From contig JAZLCA010000001.1 in the NCBI GenBank assembly GCA_045613985.1, forward strand, positions 616 to 64,615: 64,000 nucleotides of DNA. The letters run 5' to 3'. The DNA is from Eubacteriales bacterium (GTDB lineage Bacteria; Bacillota; Clostridia; Oscillospirales; CAG-272). The notes below the pieces were generated by a model. That model was not told the DNA's origin, did no database searches, and worked only from the letters and a program-made list of their open reading frames with translations. Shown here one piece after another: positions 10,724-17,677 of the stretch (the stretch's first letter is position 1; every line of letters begins with the position of its first letter). A program made the translations under genes and the position numbers.

Positions 10724-10931
10724 GGTGACAAGATTCAGAACTTAGTTTTGCGCAGAAAATTCAGCAGTAACCCATAGTTTGGTGTAGCGCAAAACGAGCA
10801 AATGCTGTCGCATTTGCGAAGTCCTGAATCCGTGAAGCATCAAGCGATAAAACAAAAAGCAGGGATAACCCTGCTTTTTGTTTTATGGTCGAGGTGACAA
10901 GATTCGAACTTGCGACTTCTACGTCCCGAAC
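10724..10931. repeat. Left 208-bp direct repeat bracketing the island
   Basis: Aligns without indels to 17439-17646, with about 8 mismatches by eye. Confidence 0.9.
10886..10931 (-). pseudogene. tRNA-Pro 3' fragment (46 nt, from the anticodon loop to CCA), an att-type duplicate
   Basis: Identical to 17601-17646. Identity stops inside the anticodon loop. Confidence 0.85.
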
Positions 10932-11172
10932 TTATGTCATTTGTTGAACTTTCGGTTATTACTTACAATCTTTACAAGCTTTATTTTAACATGGCGCTGC
11001 GGATCCGTGCGCTCTTGACGGCGCTTTTTTGTTTTACAGGAATTGATTTATGCCGGTGCGCGGCAGAATGCGTAACAAGCGCGTGGGATTGCGTAACACA
11101 TCACAAACGGTTTCATGTAAATACGCATGGGAGAGTTTGCAAAAAGGTTGCGAATAACTCAATTAAAGGCTG

Positions 11173-11201
11173 TGTACAAATCAATCCAAATGCGATATAA
11201 T
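11173..11201 (+). promoter_or_regulatory. Candidate promoter TGTACA-17-TATAAT for the XRE gene
   Basis: -35 at 11173-11178 and -10 at 11196-11201. Confidence 0.5.
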
Positions 11202-11255
11202 GTCATCATTAAAATTCAAAGACAAGTTATTGTTGCGTTGGTGGGAGGACGAAAA

Positions 11256-11582
11256 ATGTCGCTATCAAAAGAAACGATAGGAAAAAGGATTTCAAATGCA
11301 AGAAAAGCAGCGGGGTTAACACAAGAGGAACTATCTGAAAAAATCGGCATATCCGAAAAGTATTTAAGTCGAATAGAATGTGGAAAGCAAGTTCCAAGCA
11401 TCACCATTATTTGGAGAATATGTGAGGTGCTACGTATTTCGGTGGATAATTTGCTTTCGCTAGGTCAGATTACGGCTTCTGATAGTAGCATACATAATGA
11501 GATCGCCCATTTCTCAACATATGAGCAGGAGCAAATCATGGAGATCATAAAAATTATCAAAAAGATAAAAAATCAACCGTAA
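11256..11582 (+). CDS. XRE-family helix-turn-helix transcriptional regulator
   Basis: ATG at 11256 follows GGGAGG. Contains GKRISNARKAAGLTQEELSEKIGISEKYLSRIECGKQVPS, a classic HTH_3 pattern. Confidence 0.85.
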   Translation: MSLSKETIGKRISNARKAAGLTQEELSEKIGISEKYLSRIECGKQVPSITIIWRICEVLRISVDNLLSLGQITASDSSIHNEIAHFSTYEQEQIMEIIKIIKKIKNQP

Positions 11583-11585
11583 GTT

Positions 11586-11629
11586 CAACCGATAGGTATA
11601 GAGATATACTTATCGGTTGTTTTCTTTTT
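11586..11629 (+). terminator. Intrinsic terminator
   Basis: CAACCGATA...TATCGGTTG stem followed by TTTTCTTTTT. Confidence 0.8.
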
Positions 11630-11724
11630 CGCGAGATTTGATAGAATGTTTCGTAATAAAGATACCATTAAATAAATTCATCTGTTCGTGATAAAATAAT
11701 TAGGTAGAAGGAGGATGATAGAAT

Positions 11725-12564
11725 ATGAGAAAAATAACAAATGAAACAATACAATCATTCAATGACTATCTAATTAACGAGGAAAAGGCAGCGGCAACCA
11801 TCACTAAGTATCTGCATGATGTGGGCGGATTTCAAATATGGCTTGGCGAACAAGAACTATGCAAAGCGGCAATTCTTGCTTATAAGGCATATCTTTGCGA
11901 GCATTACGCCCCAGCAAGTGTCAATGCCGCGCTCTCGTCACTCAATAGTTTTTTCAATTTTATGGAGTGGTACGATTTGAGAGTGAAGAACCTTAAAATC
12001 CAGAAGCAGATATTTGCTTCAACGGACAAGGAGTTGACTAAAGCCGAGTATGATCGCCTTTTGAGTGCGGCAAAACAGAAGAAAAACGAGCGTTTGTATC
12101 TCTTGATGCAGACGATCTGCTCCACGGGTATCCGCGTATCCGAGGTGCGCTATGTTACTGTGGAGGCAGTTGCACGCGGTATTGCCGAGATCAACTGCAA
12201 GGGCAAGCGCAGACAGGTGTTCTTGCCCAAACAGCTTTGTCAGATCTTGAAGCAGTATATCAAGGAACAAAAAATAACAAGCGGAGCCGTGTTCGTAACG
12301 AAAAACGGCAATCCGCTGGATAGATCGAATATCTGGAGTGATATGAAAAAACTGTGTAAGGCGGCGAACGTGTCGGGAAAGAAGGTCTTTCCGCACAACC
12401 TCCGTCACCTTTTCGCGCGCACTTATTACAGCTTGCAAAAGGACATCGTGCGCTTGGCTGACATTCTCGGGCACAGTAGCGTGAACACAACGAGAATTTA
12501 TACAATGGAAACAGGGGAGATACACCGCAGACAAATTCAGAAATTAGGGCTTTTGCGGTGTTAA
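11725..12564 (+). CDS. Tyrosine recombinase (Xer/invertase-like, 279 aa, no arm-binding N-domain)
   Basis: RBS GAAGGAGGA. SAM-like N-domain. Catalytic residues in TGIRVSE (R), HNLRH (H-x-x-R), LGHSS (H) and TRIYT (Y). Confidence 0.9.
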   Translation: MRKITNETIQSFNDYLINEEKAAATITKYLHDVGGFQIWLGEQELCKAAILAYKAYLCEHYAPASVNAALSSLNSFFNFMEWYDLRVKNLKIQKQIFASTDKELTKAEYDRLLSAAKQKKNERLYLLMQTICSTGIRVSEVRYVTVEAVARGIAEINCKGKRRQVFLPKQLCQILKQYIKEQKITSGAVFVTKNGNPLDRSNIWSDMKKLCKAANVSGKKVFPHNLRHLFARTYYSLQKDIVRLADILGHSSVNTTRIYTMETGEIHRRQIQKLGLLRC

Positions 12565-12584
12565 AACGGGCAAAAAATAAAACT

Positions 12585-12608
12585 ACCACATAATTCTCAT
12601 TATGTAGT
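12585..12608. repeat. Inverted repeat, left copy (ACCACATAATTCTCATTATGTAGT)
   Basis: Exact reverse complement of 12811-12834. Confidence 0.95.
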
Positions 12609-12631
12609 AGATATATAATTATACGTAATAT

Positions 12632-15827: not shown

Positions 15828-15874
15828 TTGGCTGAAATTTGTATTTGCAGATTTCAAATATATTAATGATGTTA

Positions 15875-15891
15875 TCTCTTGCTTTGAGTAA
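15875..15891. repeat. 17-bp motif TCTCTTGCTTTGAGTAA, inverted relative to the copies at 16798-16814 and 16831-16847
   Basis: Exact reverse-complement match. Confidence 0.9.
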
Positions 15892-15941
15892 TAAAAACAT
15901 TGGAGATTTATAACATTTTATTTGTATGGAAGGAAACTCAA

Positions 15942-16772
15942 ATGAAAAAAATATTAGCAAAATTAAAACATATGTGGAAGGATCCAATCAACACAATTGA
16001 GGAAGCGGATGCGCGCAAGAAAGAGATATTGCCTTGGTTGTATGGTTGCATTGGAGCTGCAGTTTTGTTCTGTGGATTGTCAAATGTTGGGCCGCTCGGT
16101 TTCTTGATGATCTTTGGGTTGGTAGCTATTTTCGGAGTGATGGCGTTTGGATTTATGCTTTTTGTTACTGTCAAGGCTAAAGAGAAGTTTGGCGCTCTTA
16201 CCTGTAACAACTGTAACACCATGGCAACAATCAAAACCCCTGAGGAATATGAGGCGCAGGTATCTTATGTCTATGACGTTGCATTTAAGGCAGAGTATGA
16301 GGGTATAAGCCACCCTCAAAGCAACAACGGTGTAATTTCCGAGGTTAGAGCCAAGGCACATGCTTCGGTCGCCATTTCGATAGACCTTAAGTGTGCTAAC
16401 TGCGGCACCGTAAAGCATCTTGAATACGTAATCACTCCTTTCAAGTGCTCTATTATAGAGAAGAAGGTTCTTGTAAGAGACGTTGAACTTGTAAAGATGC
16501 GACTGGAGAATGCTGTTAAGGAAGTTGTTAACGATTTTAACGACCTTGAAAAGCGCGTAAAAATTCCCTTTACCATTCACAGCATTCACAATCCCAAGTA
16601 TGAGGAGAGAACTAAGCCTCAAGTTGGAAACGACGGAGTTGCGTTCCCCCACTATAACGGTGTAAAGATCGATTATCACAGAACTCCCGAAGAAATGATT
16701 AGAGGATTCTTCCTTGAGAACGAACTTAATGGTAAGATCATCGATCCTAGCAAGCCCAAAAAGTCAAAGTAA
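15942..16772 (+). CDS. Membrane protein (2 N-terminal TM helices) with a four-Cys (CNNC...CANC) domain
   Basis: ATG at 15942 follows GGAAGGA. Hydrophobic N-terminus. Confidence 0.65.
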   Translation: MKKILAKLKHMWKDPINTIEEADARKKEILPWLYGCIGAAVLFCGLSNVGPLGFLMIFGLVAIFGVMAFGFMLFVTVKAKEKFGALTCNNCNTMATIKTPEEYEAQVSYVYDVAFKAEYEGISHPQSNNGVISEVRAKAHASVAISIDLKCANCGTVKHLEYVITPFKCSIIEKKVLVRDVELVKMRLENAVKEVVNDFNDLEKRVKIPFTIHSIHNPKYEERTKPQVGNDGVAFPHYNGVKIDYHRTPEEMIRGFFLENELNGKIIDPSKPKKSK

Positions 16773-16794
16773 TCAATTATACATATCAATAGAT

Positions 16795-16860
16795 ATTTTA
16801 CTCAAAGCAAGAGAACATATATAAAACATTTTACTCAAAGCAAGAGAACATATATAAAAC
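16795..16860 (+). repeat. 2 x 33-bp perfect tandem repeat (ATTTTACTCAAAGCAAGAGAACATATATAAAAC)
   Basis: Each unit contains TTTACT-17-TATAAA. A partial third unit follows. Confidence 0.9.
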
Positions 16861-16899
16861 ATTTCACTTATATTGATTGAATCAAAAGAGGAATAAAAA

Positions 16900-17151
16900 A
16901 TGATATTTAAGCAAGTTAGATTAATTTTCGATGAGTATGGAAACTGTATATTTCATGGTGATAAATGTATAGTAACACCAAATGAACCAGCCGCTTCTAC
17001 TAAGCAGGTTTATGGCAAGGAAGGCTATAGCTTTATGAAGGAAGAAGAATACTTGACCGCTATTGCTGCAGAAGGTTGGGCATTGCACACTGCTAATTAT
17101 TGTGTTCTTGGAAGGCAAGAAGCTCACTATTTCTTATTTGTGAAAGAATAA
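16900..17151 (+). CDS. Small hypothetical protein (83 aa)
   Basis: RBS AAAGAGGAA. No recognised domain. Confidence 0.5.
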   Translation: MIFKQVRLIFDEYGNCIFHGDKCIVTPNEPAASTKQVYGKEGYSFMKEEEYLTAIAAEGWALHTANYCVLGRQEAHYFLFVKE

Positions 17152-17438
17152 TAATTGGCATGTAAACATATATTTTTTCTCAAGGCAAGGTAGCCATAAG
17201 AAGAATGCCGCTTTTGAAAACTGTTAGTAGTTGCGAGATGCGATGTTATTCCAATGTGCAAAAGTGAACAAGAACATTTGCTTAGTATTCAAAGCCGTGA
17301 TCGTGGCTATTTACAAAAACAACGAGTAGTCAAGACTCCTCGTCTCCTCATCTGCGTAGCAAACTGTGTAACACCCCTTCAAAAATTGCGTAACAACTAA
17401 AAAATAAAGCCTTGAAAACGTAATGTTTTCAAGGCTTT

Positions 17439-17646
17439 GGTGACAAGATTCAGAACTCAGTTTTGCGCCGAAAATTCAGCAGTAACCCATAGTTTTGCGT
17501 AGCGCAAAACGACTAAATGCTGTCGCATTTGCGAAGTCCTGAATCCGTGAAGCATCAAGCGATAAAACAAAAAGCAGGGTTATCCCTGCTTTTTGTTTTA
17601 TGGTCGAGGTGACAAGATTCGAACTTGCGACTTCTACGTCCCGAAC
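17439..17646. repeat. Right 208-bp direct repeat (overlaps the 3' 46 nt of tRNA-Pro)
   Basis: Partner of 10724-10931. Confidence 0.9.
17563..17600 (-). terminator. Intrinsic terminator after tRNA-Pro
   Basis: AAAAGCAGGG / CCCTGCTTTT stem with flanking T/A runs. Confidence 0.8.
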
Positions 17647-17677
17647 GTAGCGCTCTACCAAGCTGAGCCACACCTCG
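17601..17677 (-). tRNA. tRNA-Pro (anticodon CGG)
   Basis: Manual cloverleaf: acceptor CGAGGTG/CACCTCG with C1:G72 and A73, D stem GCTC/GAGC, anticodon arm CTACG-TTCGGGA-CGTAG, T arm GCAAG-TTCGAAT-CTTGT, encoded CCA. Confidence 0.9.

Follow-up and report, generated by a model that had tools for sequence, protein, structure and literature searches.

Why should a small A+T-rich island lie beside a tRNA-Pro(CGG) gene, between direct repeats as long as 208 nucleotides (nt), when the only recombinase that it encodes is without an arm-binding domain? The question is raised by a 64-kb stretch of DNA from contig JAZLCA010000001.1 of an Eubacteriales bacterium, and that whole 64 kb is referred to here as the window. 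A preliminary description had offered two answers, a decayed island or a recombinase serving an adjacent switch, and the present analysis supports the view that the two are mutually compatible. With a rough probability of 0.7, the island is a horizontally acquired, non-autonomous tRNA-Pro islet that carries a cassette with an invertible promoter segment (an inverton) together with cargo genes, and its recombinase is the invertase of that segment rather than an integrase. Related loci from public assemblies and metagenome contigs are given L-numbers where they have to be told apart.

The features that bound the island, as found by repeat search and alignment (for the tRNA half also by BLAST, for the terminator as an inverted-repeat pair and for the intact gene by ARAGORN and Rfam), are these:

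10724..10931, no strand: left copy of the 208-nt repeat (unit B, spacer, terminator and tRNA 3′ half)
10847..10886, minus strand: terminator hairpin, term1′, 3′ of the displaced tRNA half
10886..10931, minus strand: displaced tRNA-Pro(CGG) 3′ half, from the anticodon loop to CCA
17439..17646, no strand: right copy of the 208-nt repeat (unit C, spacer, terminator 17562-17601 and tRNA 3′ half)
17601..17677, minus strand: intact tRNA-Pro(CGG)

A repeat search gave 10724-10934 and 17439-17649 as a direct repeat of 211 nt with 96% identity, and in a MAFFT alignment the copies had 208 positions, 8 mismatches and no indels, just as had been described. In the sense of the tRNA the first 63 nt of the two copies are identical. 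Identity of the left copy to the tRNA stops at the 5′ edge of the anticodon loop, and the 46 nt from there to CCA (10886-10931) match plus-strand tRNA positions 1-46 at 46 of 46 by BLAST, both again in agreement with the earlier account. The tRNA is the single one of the window and its previously given position is confirmed by ARAGORN and Rfam (64.7 bits), with the addition that it is on the minus strand, so that the island is on its downstream side. At E<=1 nothing else in the window was matched by Rfam, which returned no family for the repeated units or the pseudo-tRNA considered below. The island was also correctly said to be richer in A+T than both of its sides: G+C is 40.5% in 10935-17438, 56.1% in the left flank, 51.5% in the right flank and 53.3% in the window overall. 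By itself the 46-nt tRNA half is a classical integration footprint, and it is specific to the arrival of the island.

The terminators in the two copies, 10847-10886 and 17562-17601, differ solely in a flipped loop, TTAT versus ATAA. As a minor observation, the loops at 10864-10869 and 17579-17584 are mutually reverse-complementary (GGGATAACCC on the left and GGGTTATCCC on the right, plus strand); 2 of the 8 repeat mismatches are explained in this way, and the change resembles a hairpin-loop flip more than two point mutations.

An empty site had been proposed as a check on insertion, and one was found, in a different species. Two metagenome contigs, L018 and L019, encode a homologue (79% identical) of the 827-amino acid (aa) protein that flanks the island (17983-20466). 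Their gene order, acyltransferase (638 aa), DcuC, about 540 bp, the 827-aa gene, a LytTR regulator, a 1339-aa gene, SpoIIE and YpsA, is that of the window open reading frames (ORFs) 4350-6266, 6271-7764, 17983-20466, 20731-21534, 21595-25932, 26060-28561 and 28728-29219. The 540 bp contain the DcuC terminator, one unit, a terminator and tRNA-Pro(CGG), and nothing else. In the window the corresponding gap is about 10.2 kb, and the excess of about 9.7 kb is accounted for by the island, the tRNA half, units A and B and, at 8017-10494, a gene for a trypsin-like protease. Since L018 and L019 hold just these 540 bp between the same flanking genes, 10935-17438 is, judged by sequence comparison, an insertion of foreign A+T-rich DNA beside tRNA-Pro. 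A scan of genome contigs with the flanking protein yielded a single distant metagenome-assembled genome (MAG), L001. The empty site being from another species, the call of gain over loss rests on base composition and the tRNA footprint.

It is highly improbable that the segment is ancestral and was deleted in the lineage of L018 and L019, with the repeat a local segmental duplication unrelated to mobility. The sole empty site is from a different species and repeats of 208 nt could mediate a deletion, but the G+C of the segment is 13 points under that of its flanks, copies of its cassette in unrelated contexts have 82-88% nucleotide identity to it, the tRNA half is cut off at the anticodon loop just as it is in independent islands, and the motifs at its ends pair both termini.

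The protease gene at 8017-10494 encodes an 825-aa secreted trypsin-like protein with about ten Cys-rich repeats of about 40 aa, at a G+C of 0.50. It is missing from the DcuC-tRNA interval of L018 and L019 and so marks a second indel at the locus.

What the recombinase does is best approached from the DNA that surrounds its gene:

11256..11582, plus strand: XRE-family helix-turn-helix (HTH) regulator, 108 aa (Pfam HTH_3, 6e-16)
11725..12564, plus strand: Xer-like tyrosine recombinase, 279 aa (Pfam Phage_integrase, 6e-30, and a SAM-like N-domain)
12585..12608, no strand: left inverted repeat (IRL) of the inverton, ACCACATAA-TTCTCA-TTATGTAGT (repeat search, pattern scan)
12632..12660, minus strand: sigma-70 promoter TTGACA-17-TAAAAT, matching at 11 of 12 positions and with a TG extension (promoter scan)
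12721..12753, plus strand: conserved hairpin AGACCAATGAA...TTCATTGGTCT inside the inverton, present also in L002, L005 and L010
12811..12834, no strand: right inverted repeat (IRR) of the inverton (repeat search, pattern scan)

The recombinase has the expected catalytic motifs, GIRVSE (R), HNLRH (H, R) and GHSSVNTTRIY (H, Y), when aligned to the XerC-like structure 4a8e. Pfam confirms the earlier statements that this sole recombinase of 279 aa has no arm-binding domain and that no excisionase, replication or transfer domain is encoded in the island; a relaxase domain was likewise not found there. An identity as a chromosome-dimer Xer protein was considered and rejected: its NCBIfam scores (XerA 135.8 bits, XerD 130.4 and XerC 116.7) are under the family cut-offs of 220, 329.6 and 335, respectively, and a dedicated site is adjacent. 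There are more than 8000 homologues, of which the best 120 are 91-96% identical, and no paralogue elsewhere in the 64-kb window. In phage and plasmid collections only recombinases of at most 54% identity occur, in Oscillospiraceae-like records, and IMG/VR holds two homologues at 56%. The HTH gene, with a promoter predicted at 11173-11201, is a conserved partner upstream of the recombinase gene, and its position is kept in L002-L017 and L117.

The first base of the inverted repeat (IR), ACCACATAATTCTCATTATGTAGT, is 20 nt past the recombinase stop codon. The repeat is perfect over 24 bp and consists of two 9-bp elements flanking a 6-bp centre, and with its partner it encloses an inverton of 250 bp (12585-12834). 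For a survey of such repeats 80 further loci with recombinase homologues of 55-96% identity were fetched. Most of those with enough downstream sequence have a pair of the form [ACC]ACATAAT-N4-ATTATGT[GGT], from a few to about 50 nt past the recombinase stop and enclosing 240-330 bp. The centre differs between loci (TTCTCA, TTCTCG, TTAACC, TTCCCA) and the flanking 9-mers are conserved, and so the IR looks like the core site of a tyrosine recombinase, in which two binding elements enclose the crossover region. In the window the core pattern occurs at the two IRs only.

Both orientations of the inverton are found among assemblies in which recombinase protein and flanks are the same: L002, L004, L006 and L008 versus L003 and L009, and L010, L012 and L013 versus L011 and L014-L017. 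In the pair L002 and L003 the segment between the IRs, of 247 bp, is an exact (100%) reverse complement, next to flanks with identities of 100% and 99.8%; in the pair L010 and L011 it is so over 244 bp, and the flanks agree at 99.7-100% over 9 kb. The cassettes seen in both orientations are homologues with a recombinase of 93-95% identity. Several contigs from Logan break off at the inverton, as is expected if the samples contained both orientations. With both orientations present in homologues and the IR architecture kept down to 55% identity, the suggestion that the recombinase serves the adjacent switch has held up well, and it is most likely the invertase of this 250-bp promoter switch and not the integrase of the island.

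In the window copy the promoter (12660-12632) points away from the cargo genes, while in flipped homologues (L003, L010) it faces the cargo downstream. The window switch would thus be OFF and inversion would turn the operon ON. In the OFF orientation the hairpin at 12721-12753 would block read-through from the recombinase gene. On the minus strand (12583-12610) IRL itself is a palindrome with a T-run that scores as a terminator of leftward transcription, and while the switch is OFF it may keep antisense transcription from the switch promoter out of the recombinase gene.

Sequencing reads were also consulted for a circular form or a repaired junction, a check that had been recommended. Searches of sequencing runs with the left part of the island, the right flank and the cargo gave word matches of 5-7% or none, and no run from the source organism turned up. 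Exact-sequence queries with the recombinase and with the flanking 827-aa protein had no match. Four metagenome runs mapped to the locus contained related recombinase and tRNA sequences and no trustworthy excision or circle junction. Joints in the runs from 10573 to 17601 and from 17438 to 10727 were rejected as signs of excision and of a circle, as repeated tRNA-like ends account for both.

If the recombinase is an invertase, the means of integration has to be sought at the ends of the island:

10935..11247, plus strand: left end region with two TGCGTAACA motifs, at 11069-11077 and 11090-11098 (motif scan)
17162..17438, plus strand: right end region with TGTGTAACA at 17365-17373 and TGCGTAACA at 17387-17395 (motif and terminator scan)

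The common form of the motif, TGYGTAACA, occurs at 4 sites in the 64-kb window where 0.53 would be expected, two at each end of the island and all on the plus strand. The right end region closes with a terminator hairpin on the minus strand, 17406-17438. The left region is shared with no other cassette locus. In L110-L113, where the same operon has another context, homology ends at 17161 and the end regions of the island are absent. The two regions are putatively the relic arms of a former attP site; the left one may alternatively, or also, be a putative operator region upstream of the HTH promoter.

Related islands have an integrase of their own. In L077, L084 and L093 a 402-aa integrase lies at tRNA-Thr with the cassette about 4 kb further in; Pfam confirms SAM_3 and catalytic domains for that of L077, where an SPFH gene follows the inverton. 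In L117, an NCBI MAG, a 313-aa integrase is directly upstream of the HTH-recombinase-SPFH operon, with 82% nucleotide identity over 4.6 kb, and no remnant of this integrase was found in the window. The 279-aa recombinase is unlikely as an integrase since its core sites are internal only and related islands have a separate integrase. These islands and the empty site of L018 and L019 bear out the view that the window island has no integration machinery of its own. Integration at the tRNA-Pro anticodon loop is, on the evidence of other loci, real for cassette-bearing islands: L017 and L010-L013 have 3′ halves of different host tRNA-Pro(UGG) genes, both ending at the anticodon loop, and these abut a homologous island end that is 85% identical over 271 nt.

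Several points weigh against the reading favored here. Flipping was observed in homologous cassettes, and for the window copy we infer inversion and excision. The empty site is not from a strain of the same species, the two being separated by a protein identity of 79%. Cassette DNA lies beside tRNA-Pro fragments in three unrelated contexts (the window, L010/L017 and L026), which is more than a mere passenger would lead one to expect. At the left junction the island sequence, TTATGTCAT, resembles one recombinase half-site. Finally, the crossover may have been in the tRNA anticodon loop or in the tRNA-like end of unit C.

Some of these points would suit a recombinase of dual function, one that, besides flipping the promoter, carries out integration or excision of the island at the anticodon loop of tRNA-Pro and so makes integration autonomous. 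It is the sole recombinase of the island and of the window, cassette DNA abuts tRNA-Pro 3′ halves in those three contexts, and the left junction (...CCCGAAC|TTATGTCAT) matches the TTATGTRGT half-site at 7 of 9 positions. Such a role is nevertheless improbable. No full core site (ACATAAT-N4-ATTATGT with at most 2 mismatches) is present at either junction or in the tRNA, and the half-site is not present at the L017 and L010 junctions. A tRNA is missing within 10 kb of many cassettes, and in L026 the cassette is on the opposite side of the tRNA fragment. A separate dedicated integrase is found in related islands, and the end motifs are specific to the island and not to the cassette. An invertase carried as part of an island that was integrated by other means therefore remains the preferred reading.

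The length of the repeat calls for a separate explanation. It had been termed unusually long, and long it is, but the part with the character of an attachment (att) footprint is just the 46 nt, the other 160 nt or so being a terminator and a resident unit. That the repeat contains a structured unit was also seen before; a third copy, at 10545-10653, and the 25-nt tRNA mimic in it were overlooked. The units, from repeat and repeat-family searches, alignment and inspection of the sequence, are:

10545..10653, minus strand: unit A, about 109 nt, the oldest copy
10713..10821, minus strand: unit B, 94% identical to A and 96% to C
17428..17536, minus strand: unit C, without 6 nt of the acceptor mimic

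In the sense of the tRNA, unit A ends in a 25-nt mimic of the tRNA-Pro 3′ end (tRNA match 10549-10568) and is followed by a hairpin terminator at about 10520-10550; unit B is followed by one at 10676-10717. The plus-strand start of every unit is GGTCGAGGTGACAAGATTCAGAACT, a tRNA 3′-end mimic with one inserted base. Units A and B form a tandem array of 168-nt period to the left of the island. Units also lie next to tRNA-Pro where there is no island: one in L001 (2806-2915), one in L018 (9546-9640) and two of different types in L102 (349-660); L104 and L105 have none. In all, these units of about 165 nt comprise at least two body types with a common mimic of 25-29 nt and a terminator each, and their number and type vary between related species. 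They are, as far as such comparisons go, a resident and lineage-specific feature that is independent of the island, and the 208-nt repeat is long because a resident unit of about 165 nt was iterated at the locus.

Unit C lacks 6 nt of the acceptor mimic and keeps the unit-specific inserted base; the left tRNA fragment has the full acceptor end and no insertion. This pattern is expected from a crossover within GACAAGATTC. Two histories fit. In one, the island entered the anticodon loop carrying a terminator and a unit that it had acquired at the same locus in a close relative. In the other, a third unit was present in the array or was added later, and the right junction is in the tRNA-like end of unit C. 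Under both the long repeat is not a 208-bp recombination site, though RecA-dependent loss of the island could occur through the 208-nt repeats. The 8 differences between units B and C, among 162 non-tRNA positions, are compatible with either history.

A history different from entry at the anticodon loop, in which the island went into the resident unit C mimic or a unit of about 165 nt was re-inserted after the island had arrived, is a tentative alternative and the less probable one. The 208-nt repeat would then be the sum of unit-array periodicity and an attP tRNA mimic and not one long att site. The same mimic with its 1-nt insertion is iterated (A and B with their period of 168; the type-1 and type-2 units of L102), and the right boundary of the island is exactly at the unit C mimic, where the pattern fits a crossover inside GACAAGATTC. 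Moreover, with unit C taken away, the arms and the terminator 17406-17438 would flank a 46-nt mimic, giving a compact, canonical attP of about 330 bp. Against this, the anticodon loop is exactly where the displaced fragment starts, in L017 and L010 too, which is the mark of an anticodon-loop crossover, and unit C is without such a loop.

What the units themselves are may be guessed at. The type-1 unit can fold with a 12-bp outer helix (spacer and T-arm mimic), an 8-bp hairpin and a 9-bp helix around a variable stretch of about 33 nt. The helices are near-invariant in five copies and there is almost no covariation, so that structure is neither proved nor disproved thereby. A stretch of 201 nt with the two terminators folds much better than its shuffled versions (z = -9.8). 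The units may be what is left of earlier insertions, or else miniature integrative elements or a small RNA. In its most specific form the idea, which is doubtful, is that a unit is an attP-only miniature of a cis-mobilizable element (mini-CIME) re-inserting at the T-loop/3′ end, or else a structured small-RNA gene with a tRNA-like tail. If so, the 208-nt repeat would be the by-product of an active accretion array, and with the mini-CIME there would have been insertions at tRNA-Pro in this clade both before and after that of the 6.5-kb island.

The favored reading, that of an islet in which the recombinase is an invertase, would give the island three layers. The outermost would be the two end regions of about 300 bp with their same-orientation TGYGTAACA pairs, as former attP arms. 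Within them would be the cassette, made up of the XRE regulator, the recombinase and the 250-bp invertible segment, with IRs that read ACCACATAA-N6-TTATGTRGT and, inside it, a strong promoter facing outward and an insulating hairpin. The third layer would be a cargo operon of five genes for SPFH/Band-7 double-zinc-ribbon, membrane and zinc-ribbon proteins. The recombinase would flip the promoter segment and so set the cargo ON or OFF by orientation. A dedicated tRNA-Pro-targeting integrase, lost from the island or never encoded by it, would have placed the island at the tRNA, and the 46-nt copy of the tRNA 3′ half, which stops at the anticodon loop, would be the trace of that event. Any movement of the island would be in trans, in cis (by accretion with an incoming element) or through RecA acting on the 208-nt repeats.

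A decayed, CIME-like tRNA island with a phase-variation cassette is what fits best, and it is an essentially ordinary explanation. CIMEs were first described for elements related to ICESt1 of Streptococcus thermophilus. They are decayed forms derived from integrative and conjugative elements (ICEs) or integrative and mobilizable elements (IMEs), with attL and attR retained but the genes for integration and transfer lost (PMC5704250). Like them, the window island lies between direct repeats in which the 3′ end of its target gene is included; genes for a dedicated integrase, an excisionase, a relaxase or replication are missing from it, and the tandem relics at its locus are consistent with accretion. 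It differs in its target, the tRNA-Pro gene of an uncultured Oscillospirales-like Clostridium, and in having kept one tyrosine recombinase, which is given over to an internal switch. A parent ICE or IME that shares the ends of the window island was not found, and the att-site function and ICE or IME origin of this CIME-like island are putative. Sublocation classes of tRNA integration were reportedly set out by Williams in 2002, among them islands and prophages with an anticodon-loop crossover. With classical tRNA islands the window island shares a distal duplicate of the tRNA 3′ segment (anticodon loop to CCA), an atypical composition and a site that is empty in a relative; unlike them, it has no integrase gene adjoining the tRNA and its repeat runs about 160 nt past the tRNA by way of the resident iterated unit.

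Promoter invertons with an adjacent tyrosine invertase are familiar from fimS of E. coli (FimB/FimE) and the cwpV switch of Clostridioides difficile (RecV). The window has the same elements, a segment of about 250 bp bounded by IRs, an internal promoter and a tyrosine recombinase gene next to it; both orientations are present in natural populations of homologous cassettes, and the cargo is envelope- or defence-related. Inverton group 139, with invertase group 35, is dominated by gut Clostridia and has an adjacent tyrosine invertase, the examples from Clostridium sp. D5 and Intestinimonas being 254-256 bp with IRs of 13-25 bp (PMC11892184). In dimensions and taxon the window inverton matches that group and probably belongs to the same class. 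The difference from such switches is that the window type of recombinase, the XRE regulator and the switch travel as a conserved unit with unrelated cargo. A small tRNA island with an apparently odd integrase can thus be the decayed carrier of a self-contained ON/OFF switch, and the XRE-recombinase-inverton cassette, which flips in nature, is a marker for phase-variable functions in uncultured Firmicutes.

The cargo of the window copy, all downstream of the inverton, is as follows:

12848..14236, plus strand: cargo gene 1, SPFH/Band_7_1 protein with C-terminal double zinc ribbons (Band_7_1 6e-38, DZR 6.5e-17)
14218..14652, plus strand: cargo gene 2, small multi-pass membrane protein of 144 aa (weak 7TM match)
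14649..15827, plus strand: cargo gene 3, 392 aa, N-terminal zinc ribbon and one transmembrane segment (ORF, domain scan)
15942..16772, plus strand: cargo gene 4, membrane protein of about 276 aa with CxxC pairs (ORF, homologues)
16900..17151, plus strand: cargo gene 5, 83 aa, no family match (ORF list, Pfam)

Gene 1 likely starts at ATG 12848, which is preceded by a GGAGG ribosome-binding site. Genes 2 and 3 have counterparts of 133 aa and 389 aa at the same positions in L110-L113 and L117, and gene 5 has one of 85 aa in L110-L113, in each case in DNA homologous to the window. For gene 4 the ORF list gives a TTG start at 15900, and its homologues are of 271-277 aa. From position and domain content the cargo would be a membrane-associated complex under phase variation. 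PADLOC returned generic HTH matches for it and no known defence system.

Elsewhere other genes follow the switch. Where the cargo is a different one, the homologous stretch takes in the HTH gene and/or the recombinase gene together with the inverton, and stops 1-4 nt past IRR; the nucleotide identity is that given above for copies in unrelated contexts. An SPFH/zinc-ribbon cargo follows the inverton in the window, L002-L008, L057, L077, L096, L101, L107-L113 and L117. In L010-L017 the cargo consists of large surface proteins with cohesin-like, leucine-rich repeat (LRR) and Flg_new parts, and in L026 of an Eco57I-like methylase and ResIII/T5orf172 proteins. XRE regulator, recombinase and switch are, on this showing, a portable unit that is widespread in gut Clostridia with varied cargo. 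A literature search found no SPFH/zinc-ribbon operon reported as recurrent inverton cargo, and that operon is flagged here as a recurrent phase-varied function. A further speculative notion, put on a level with that of the mini-CIME, is that the Xer-like invertase cassette may swap its cargo by recombination at the outer inverted repeat.

Two of these loci merit further mention. L026 (4216-8035, 8783-8830 and 10001-16944) has a tRNA-Pro(UGG) 3′ half with a type I restriction-modification island (HsdM, HsdS) on its 5′ side and, on its 3′ side, the recombinase-inverton cassette ahead of the Eco57I-like methylase and ResIII/T5orf172 protein; it would be a phase-variable restriction system at another tRNA-Pro hotspot. 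L007 (1623-2165) has a cassette of the L002 type in variant form: its sequence departs from the others 23 nt into the inverton and not at the IR, and the divergent part enters a DUF2971 gene that is normally downstream of the SPFH operon. L007 appears to have a deletion of promoter and cargo.

Some smaller repeats complete the picture of the locus. Between cargo genes 4 and 5, at 16795-16860, is a perfect 33-nt tandem duplication (ATTTTACTCAAAGCAAGAGAACATATATAAAAC twice), one arm of which is also in an 82% inverted repeat with 15875-15902. In L001 a third repeat, of about 91 nt and 90% identical (238-328 and 2631-2721), flanks the gene for a repeat-rich surface protein of 643 aa downstream of tRNA-Pro, and its distal copy is preceded by a tRNA 3′-end mimic. 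On the other side of the window tRNA there are two more features:

17683..17796, minus strand: pseudo-tRNA-Pro module (repeats, tRNA match)
17813..17841, minus strand: sigma-70 promoter TTGACA-17-TATAAT, a perfect match, of the tRNA transcription unit (promoter scan)

Lying between the promoter (17841-17813) and the real tRNA, the module (17683-17796) would be a co-transcribed leader of the tRNA. Its parts are a 5′ acceptor and D arm, a hairpin insert of about 40 nt and an anticodon arm, and there is no T arm. Iterated tRNA-mimic units and pseudo-tRNA modules together may record repeated site-specific insertions. In relatives the module is present in 1-3 tandem copies (L020 1-230, L021 1-250, L102 745-900 and L104 1725-1975), and two contigs terminate within the array.

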